Source: Escherichia phage RB69. Taken from it: 64,000 bases of DNA. Under the pieces are notes generated by a model. It searched no databases, was not told the DNA's origin, and worked only from the letters and a program-made list of their open reading frames with translations. The DNA lies in the sequence record NC_004928.1; one strand, 5' to 3'. Positions 9,426-9,990 of the stretch are shown here, one piece after another; the first letter of the stretch is position 1, and every line of letters starts with the position of its first letter. The position numbers were made by a program, and so were the translations under genes.

Positions 9426-9549
9426 AATTATTTACCTAGTTTAGTTATTATAGCTTCGGCAGCAGCTTTTAGCTTAGATGCAGTGTTAATACGATTTTTA
9501 ATTTCGGTATACGCATCGCCAAGAACATCAAGGCTATCAGAATAAACAC

Positions 9550-9990
9550 TTACACTATTGCGTTCGCTATTTTGAATAGAACCTTTAGTTTTACGATCAA
9601 AATCAGTGTACACGTCTTGAAGACACGGGCTGCCTTCTTTGCATCATCCAATGCATCAAGAGCTTTATTCAAAGCATTGACATATTTTTTAGTGTCAAAC
9701 ATATTCTTAGAAATTTTAACAGGTGCACGTTCAGGAGTAGCTAAGGCGGATTTAGGAACCTGCGTGCCAGATGCCAGTTTCTTAGAAATTTTGAAAAACG
9801 CTTTATTGAAACTATTTTCTTGACTCATCGTAAAAGAACTAGTATCGATGTTATACATTTCAATAGCTTTAGCTTTCCACTTAAGAAAATCGCCACGGTC
9901 TTTTGGATCCAAGTGGAAGAATACTTTAGTAAGATCTGCTTCAGATGGTAATTTTGCTGCTTCGGTTAAAAATTCGGCATAGGTTTTCAT
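9550..9990 (-). CDS. internal head protein-like; frame may continue into ORF 9428..9613
   Basis: N-terminus MKTYAEFLTEA (capsid-targeting type); C-terminal 25 aa look out of character while the overlapping frame ending at 9428 is hydrophilic and is followed by a terminator. Confidence 0.55.
   Translation of the reverse strand: MKTYAEFLTEAAKLPSEADLTKVFFHLDPKDRGDFLKWKAKAIEMYNIDTSSFTMSQENSFNKAFFKISKKLASGTQVPKSALATPERAPVKISKNMFDTKKYVNALNKALDALDDAKKAARVFKTCTLILIVKLKVLFKIANAIV

Follow-up and report, generated by a model that had tools for sequence, protein, structure and literature searches.

A probable error in the sequence record of Escherichia phage RB69 splits a gene for a candidate internal head protein

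The internal proteins of the T-even phages form a diverse set whose members have only a capsid-targeting sequence in common and which counter host defences; IPI counters GmrSD, and IPIII is required for growth on ECOR17 (PMC3012670, PMC9391042). Early sequence records of T4-like phages have needed correction, as in the case of T4 uvsW and uvsW.1, where the gene boundaries of the early record were corrected through comparison with relatives and re-sequencing (PMC1524935). Frameshifts in T-even genomes have also been discussed in another setting, since phase-variation loci at homopolymers of at least 6 bp have been proposed for phages T2 and T4 (preprint 10.1101/2025.10.21.683753). Here we describe a locus of phage RB69 that touches on each of these subjects, a gene with a capsid-targeting type of leader that stands in the reference genome as two overlapping open reading frames.

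The stretch of RB69 DNA analysed here, 64,000 nucleotides long and called the window throughout, contains this locus on its minus strand (Table 1). The record is GenBank AY303349/NC_004928, which we take to be a Sanger sequence dated 2003. The coordinates of both overlapping ORFs were verified in the window sequence, and an exact-sequence look-up identified their 146-aa and 61-aa products with NP_861839.1 and NP_861838.1, each of which is known from one contig only, the record itself. The 146-aa ORF begins MKTYAEFLTEAAKLPSE, has an AAGGA ribosome-binding site 8 nt ahead of its ATG and opens with the leader MKTYAEFLTEA, and it closes with the 24-residue tail VFKTCTLILIVKLKVLFKIANAIV, which the original prediction had called an implausible hydrophobic tail. 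These residues indeed have no counterpart in any homolog: residues 1-122 of RB69ORF149c are native and the final 24 are out of frame. The 61-aa ORF is hydrophilic, reads MYTDFDRKTKGSIQNSERNS...AIITKLGK and corresponds, in the alignment with relatives, to residues ~127-187 of the intact protein; no Shine-Dalgarno sequence was found near its GTG start. It was also said to end at a terminator hairpin, and such a hairpin begins 8 nt past its stop codon, the sole terminator-like hairpin within 9200-10500. Read on the minus strand (9419->9401) it is CCCTATC-TAAAT-GATAGGG, a 7-bp stem that is then followed by CTTTTTTG, and the same hairpin is annotated in PhAPEC2 as the terminator behind the homologous gene.

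Table 1. Positions in the window of the features described in the text.
Feature	Position	Strand	Basis
Whole locus, one gene, RB69ORF149c family, phrog_2280	9428..9990	-	563 nt in window
N-terminal fragment RB69ORF149c, NP_861839.1, 146 aa	9550..9990	-	annotated CDS
C-terminal fragment RB69ORF148c, NP_861838.1, 61 aa, GTG start	9428..9613	-	annotated CDS
Site of missing base, one A of Asp GAT codon	9623..9624	-	alignment with relatives, re-sequenced RB69
Second discrepancy, 50 nt downstream of missing base	9573..9574	-	alignment, re-sequenced contigs
Intrinsic-terminator-like hairpin and T-run, ends the gene's transcript	9401..9419	-	hairpin search; PhAPEC2 annotation
IPI homolog with capsid-targeting-type leader	12449-12736		leader comparison
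Further ORFs with MKTY capsid-targeting-type leader	12783-13109, 922-1203, 3-119	-	leader search
Split gene RB69ORF138c/139c	5734-6040	-	extra base 5836, substitution 5748
alt (ADP-ribosyltransferase), NP_861900.1	61312-63396, especially 61813-61983	-	exact match, one contig only

Comparison with related phages indicates what the undivided gene looks like. An 801-nt region around the locus matches 369 T4-like phage records at 90-98% identity, and the annotations of CCU7, phiC120, T4_ev151 and ESh28 give it as one CDS of 564 nt, from which the window differs by a sole gap of 1 nt (563 vs 564 nt). A tblastn search of a phage collection that does not include RB69 itself returned full-length single-ORF matches, 564 nt and 187 aa long, in 163 records of Tequatrovirus and Mosigvirus phages of Escherichia, Shigella, Yersinia and others, with 95-99.5% identity to the 187-aa protein in all but two. 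Both RB69 ORFs align end to end with this single 564-nt ORF, a fit well outside the range of coincidence and as expected from the original prediction that one gene had been split by a frameshift; the homologs are a single ORF and not two genes with the same boundaries. The restored protein matches PHROG 2280, a family with no known function, from end to end (1.9e-53). No Pfam family scored above threshold, the best being cytochrome b562 with 18 bits against a cut-off of 30, and a search of 5.8 billion proteins returned only relatives at least 90% identical to the 187-aa protein, whose distribution is narrow. PhAPEC2 labels its copy 'similar to RB69ORF149c', and a literature search found no paper mentioning RB69ORF149c. 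T4 lacks the gene, and its e.8-rnaC interval has no annotated gene. The closest genomes to RB69 are those of the Mosigvirus phages Bas46/ChristianSchoenbein, PhAPEC2, ST2 and phiC120, which are ~97% identical. In these closest relatives a 154-aa gene (PhAPEC2_134, Bas46 bas46_0241) sits between the 187-aa gene and ORF150c, and its homolog is absent from RB69 (9991-10420); RB69 is also without the putative homing endonuclease found between gp2 and gp4 in Bas46.

The gene is disrupted in a few other lineages. In that of OE5505 (vB_EcoM_OE5505) it is split into 106 + 81 aa by the loss of one A from an A6 run, and the same type of split occurs on more than 10 other contigs. Either the homopolymer is repeatedly misread in sequencing, or the frameshifting is real and resembles phase variation as proposed in the preprint 10.1101/2025.10.21.683753. 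CT01 has an in-frame deletion of 25 aa in the gene, and F26 an insertion of ~350 nt. Given these real-looking disruptions the gene is evidently dispensable.

The alignment places the missing base at ~9623/9624, where CGTGATCTTCAAGAC in the relatives corresponds to CGTG-TCTTCAAGAC in the window. Relatives and re-sequenced RB69 both have CGT GAT CTT CAA GAC (R D L Q D) at this point, and the deletion allele of the record reads CGTGTCTTCAAGAC. The junction created by the deletion appears to be peculiar to the record: a 27-mer spanning it had 0 matches in IMG/VR, none of the 163 phage records matched the window exactly across the junction stretch (best 98.1%), and among the matches listed in the search with this stretch 12/12 were one base longer than the query. 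A second discrepancy lies within the same gene, where the window has ATTCAAAAT (Gln) and re-sequenced RB69 and all relatives have ATTTCAAAT (Ser). On the coding strand this is TC in the re-sequenced contigs and CA in the window, a change that amounts to the loss of one T and the gain of one A.

In order to compare the record with independent sequences of the same phage, we fetched contigs from public sequencing runs (Logan), using neighbouring RB69-specific proteins as handles. Contigs of SRR29299748, SRR29299747 and SRR29299745 equal the window over up to 3,926 nt (8504-12428) with the exception of three positions, 9624, 9574 and 9573, all of which fall within the split gene. The A that is absent from the window is present in the contigs of all three runs, and in each of them one intact 187-aa gene is called, whose protein is identical to PhAPEC2_133. 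Because even the nearest named phages are ~3% away from the window, the contigs are, judged by their sequence, RB69 itself and not a relative. No paper citing these SRA runs was found in the literature. A tRNA gene nearby offers a control: the tRNA-Arg(UCU) gene at 10783-10861 (-) has a 2-nt (GG) insertion at ~10829 relative to Bas46. It falls in the 5' arm of the anticodon stem, so that the tRNA is 79 nt long and its stem is bulged. The same insertion is present in the same independent RB69 contigs, which indicates that the insertion is real and that the contigs reproduce genuine RB69 idiosyncrasies.

Furthermore, the split gene is one of several places at which the record departs from RB69-like contigs. 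Over 56,137 compared positions there are ~22 differing positions in ~9 tight patches, and three of these patches are the other aberrant genes of the window, ORF138c/139c and alt. When 88 Bas46 genes were compared with the window in translation, the structural genes, ~50 kb in all, gave 0 frame breaks; three small genes were broken, and identity was unusually low in alt. A frameshift at window position 447 was considered as a further fault and rejected, being a peculiarity of Bas46. The idea of a globally noisy record was also rejected, since the remaining private substitutions of the window relative to other phages are mostly synonymous (553 synonymous vs 153 nonsynonymous); the record is therefore a genuine genome with a few local errors.

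At RB69ORF138c/139c the extra base is private to the window in comparison with five relatives, and both it and the nearby substitution are absent from three independent RB69-like contigs; the five relatives and the three contigs have one intact 101-aa gene. The 71-aa ORF at 5825-6040 is an exact match to RB69ORF139c, NP_861829.1, again known from one contig only. In alt the window has +1 at 61813, -1 at 61983 and substitutions at 61875 and 61971, both of which put Lys in place of a latent stop in the shifted frame. The outcome is an open, out-of-frame stretch of 56 residues over the catalytic Arg / Ser-Thr-Ser of the ADP-ribosyltransferase core. All 4 changes revert in two independent RB69 contigs and 8 independent Logan contigs encode an Alt protein with every change reverted, so that NP_861900.1 is probably wrong across these 56 residues. 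This ORF-preserving quartet looks like the result of manual editing. No published correction of the RB69 record was found in the literature.

Several smaller differences were seen elsewhere. An RB69ORF188c-like small gene between gp23 and gp24, at 45265-45531 (-), differs from Bas46, PhAPEC2 and ST2 by -1 (45321), +1 (45472) and clustered substitutions; coverage by the independent RB69 contigs stops at 45542, short of these indels. In 45548-45749, reaching into gp24, there are six substitutions relative to RB69 contigs, and no exact match for the gp24 of the window was found in assemblies, which agrees with the presence of substitutions at 45655 and 45749. The record also differs from RB69 contigs by a +1/-1 pair 6 nt apart at 42820-42826, close to where the scaffold gene gp22 begins, and by a 3-nt indel at 54819-54821 in the gp51 region.

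How the base came to be missing has to be judged from this pattern. In the reading we prefer, one A of the Asp codon was most probably dropped from the 2003 RB69 record by mistake, in base calling or in editing, where the original Sanger assembly was of low quality, and the phage itself carries one 187-aa gene at the locus. The patchiness of the differences, the second discrepancy at a distance of 50 nt and the alt quartet fit hand-resolved poor traces better than spontaneous mutation, and we infer an error as the cause of the missing base, even though it sits in GTGATCTT, outside any homopolymer run or repeat and hence outside the commonest context of sequencing indels. We put at about 0.8 the probability that the split is an error in the 2003 record, the frameshift being a property of the database entry and not of the phage, with no new biology behind it. 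A sequencing indel had been among the causes first proposed, and it is the one best supported by the independent assemblies that contain the base and by homologs that are all single ORFs. Recent pseudogenisation, proposed alongside it, survives only as a mutation private to the 2003 stock, which would have lost one A, the ancestral allele being retained in other laboratory stocks. Such a loss is conceivable, for the disruptions in OE5505, CT01 and F26 suggest that the gene is dispensable in nature and that a true frameshift would be tolerated, and the frame-disrupting differences of the record affect only small accessory genes or the non-essential alt, with 0 in the ~50 kb of structural genes, as selection on real mutations predicts. 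We nevertheless consider it unlikely, as the deletion allele is on one contig only, that of the record, and the gene is intact in all independent RB69-like assemblies that span the site. A private mutation would also have to be accompanied by a second change in the same gene and by private differences clustered in tight patches elsewhere, and the +1, the -1 and the two stop-removing substitutions of alt have no stepwise selective path, whereas the manual editing of poor traces to hold an ORF open would give this pattern.

The remaining explanations take the two frames of the record at face value. Programmed -1 ribosomal frameshifting or transcriptional slippage could yield a fused product, and the frames would be joined by a -1 shift at any point of gene positions 348-438, an interval that holds four weak single-tRNA slip tetramers (A_AAG twice, A_AAA, T_TTG). 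However, a scan of the gene for X_XXY_YYZ heptamers found none, the folding energy of the RNA (MFE -22 kcal/mol) does not stand out from the shuffle mean of -22.55 (z = +0.17), and the site has no homopolymer on which a polymerase could slip. The ORF is plainly continuous in the 163 records and in re-sequenced RB69, which leaves no conserved recoding signal and makes this explanation very improbable; with neither slippery heptamer nor stimulatory structure, the frameshift site suggested in the original prediction has to be abandoned. The inverted repeat that was noticed where the frames overlap is a chance palindrome, partly created by the missing base. In the string CGTCTTGAAGACACG at 9613-9627 only GTCTT/AAGAC is self-complementary, with 5-nt arms and a 1-nt spacer; there are 87 such 5+1+5 palindromes in the window, about one per 736 nt, the arms are only 4 nt long in the intact sequence GTCTTGAAGATCAC, and a repeat search did not report the GTCTT/AAGAC palindrome. 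More improbable still is the view that the ORFs are independent of each other, one encoding a 146-aa internal protein and the other a 61-aa protein; in its favour, the RB69 record lists each as a CDS of its own. The GTG of the shorter one has no Shine-Dalgarno sequence to start from, the terminal residues of the longer one lack counterparts in homologs, and both pieces are collinear with one ORF in 163 records. Equally hard to credit is a contingency locus in which reversible homopolymer frameshifting serves as phase variation; the A6 run that is frameshifted in the OE5505 lineage speaks for it, but the base missing from RB69 is not part of a repeat, and the A6 run itself (T6 at 9686-9691, + strand) is intact in the window.

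If the split is removed, the protein that emerges is probably an internal head protein, a view that rests on its N-terminus. Its leader is of the T4 capsid-targeting type, as had been claimed for the 146-aa ORF, being identical at 8/11 positions to the MKTYQEFIAEA of IPII/IPIII. The leader ends in a cleavage-type motif, L8-T9-E10|A11, of the form Leu/Ile-x-Glu. The motif (L/I)-x-E followed by a small residue is reportedly that of the gp21 prohead protease, as established for T4 (Mullaney & Black 1996, cited in PMC9391042), and the window has a gp21 homolog of its own at 42136-42774. From the leader and its motif we infer packaging, processing and function as follows: the 187-aa protein would enter the prohead core by means of its capsid-targeting leader, a gp21-type protease would trim the leader at MKTYAEFLTE|A, and the trimmed protein would be injected with the DNA. 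Only five ORFs in the window start with an MKTY-type leader, the 187-aa gene and the IPI homolog included. One of the others, a 108-aa ORF next to ipI, has its first 11 residues identical to those of T4 IPII/IPIII and no counterpart among the annotated Bas46 proteins compared. In the C-terminal part of this 108-aa ORF (12783-13109), position 12798 differs from the re-sequenced contigs.

A single-sequence AlphaFold model of the 187-aa protein is all-helical and of low confidence (pLDDT 62, pTM 0.32), with a long C-terminal helical hairpin at residues 100-186. According to this low-confidence model, an artefactual frameshift at residue 123 would remove the predicted hairpin. No proteomic report for this protein family was found in the literature. 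It is possible to combine a deletion that is real in the 2003 stock with an intact protein that is an unrecognised capsid-targeted and injected protein, possibly an anti-defence factor, and we regard this combination as doubtful. Were the deletion real, the truncated internal protein of the 2003 stock would keep the targeting leader and be without the C-terminal helical hairpin; whether or not it was real, the intact protein, common to Tequatrovirus and Mosigvirus at an identity of at least 95%, would possibly be an anti-defence protein like IPI or IPIII.

The consequences concern the reference genome more than the phage. NP_861839.1, NP_861838.1, NP_861829.1 and a 56-residue stretch of NP_861900.1 appear to be artefacts of the 2003 record, and as RB69 is a widely used model phage, such errors can mislead homology searches and structure predictions. 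A useful outcome of this work is therefore a catalogue of places where a much-used reference genome is probably wrong. The intact gene, in turn, is a plausible addition to the diverse T-even repertoire of internal proteins, to which the GmrSD inhibitor IPI and the host-range factor IPIII belong.

Set beside known systems, the locus resembles -1 frameshifting sites of the dnaX type (A_AAA_AAG with a downstream structure) in having overlapping frames that a -1 shift could join, but it differs from them in lacking the slippery heptamer, the stimulatory structure and conservation. With T4 IPI, IPII and IPIII the RB69 protein has in common both the leader and the Leu-x-Glu|Ala motif, and its gene, which has its own terminator, is found in the early/accessory region together with the ipI, ipII and ipIII homologs. 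Like the internal proteins, the RB69 protein is small, hydrophilic, Lys-rich, apparently dispensable and variably present (PMC3012670, PMC9391042). It differs from IPI, IPII and IPIII in showing no sequence similarity past the leader and in being encoded by a gene absent from T4, and its low-confidence all-helical model differs from the compact beta-sheet fold reported for IPI*. With regard to the history of the sequence itself, the closest likeness is to uvsW and uvsW.1, where an early Sanger record of a T4-like phage was likewise found to be wrong by means of relatives and re-sequencing; in that case one annotated gene became two, whereas at the RB69 locus two annotated ORFs become one.
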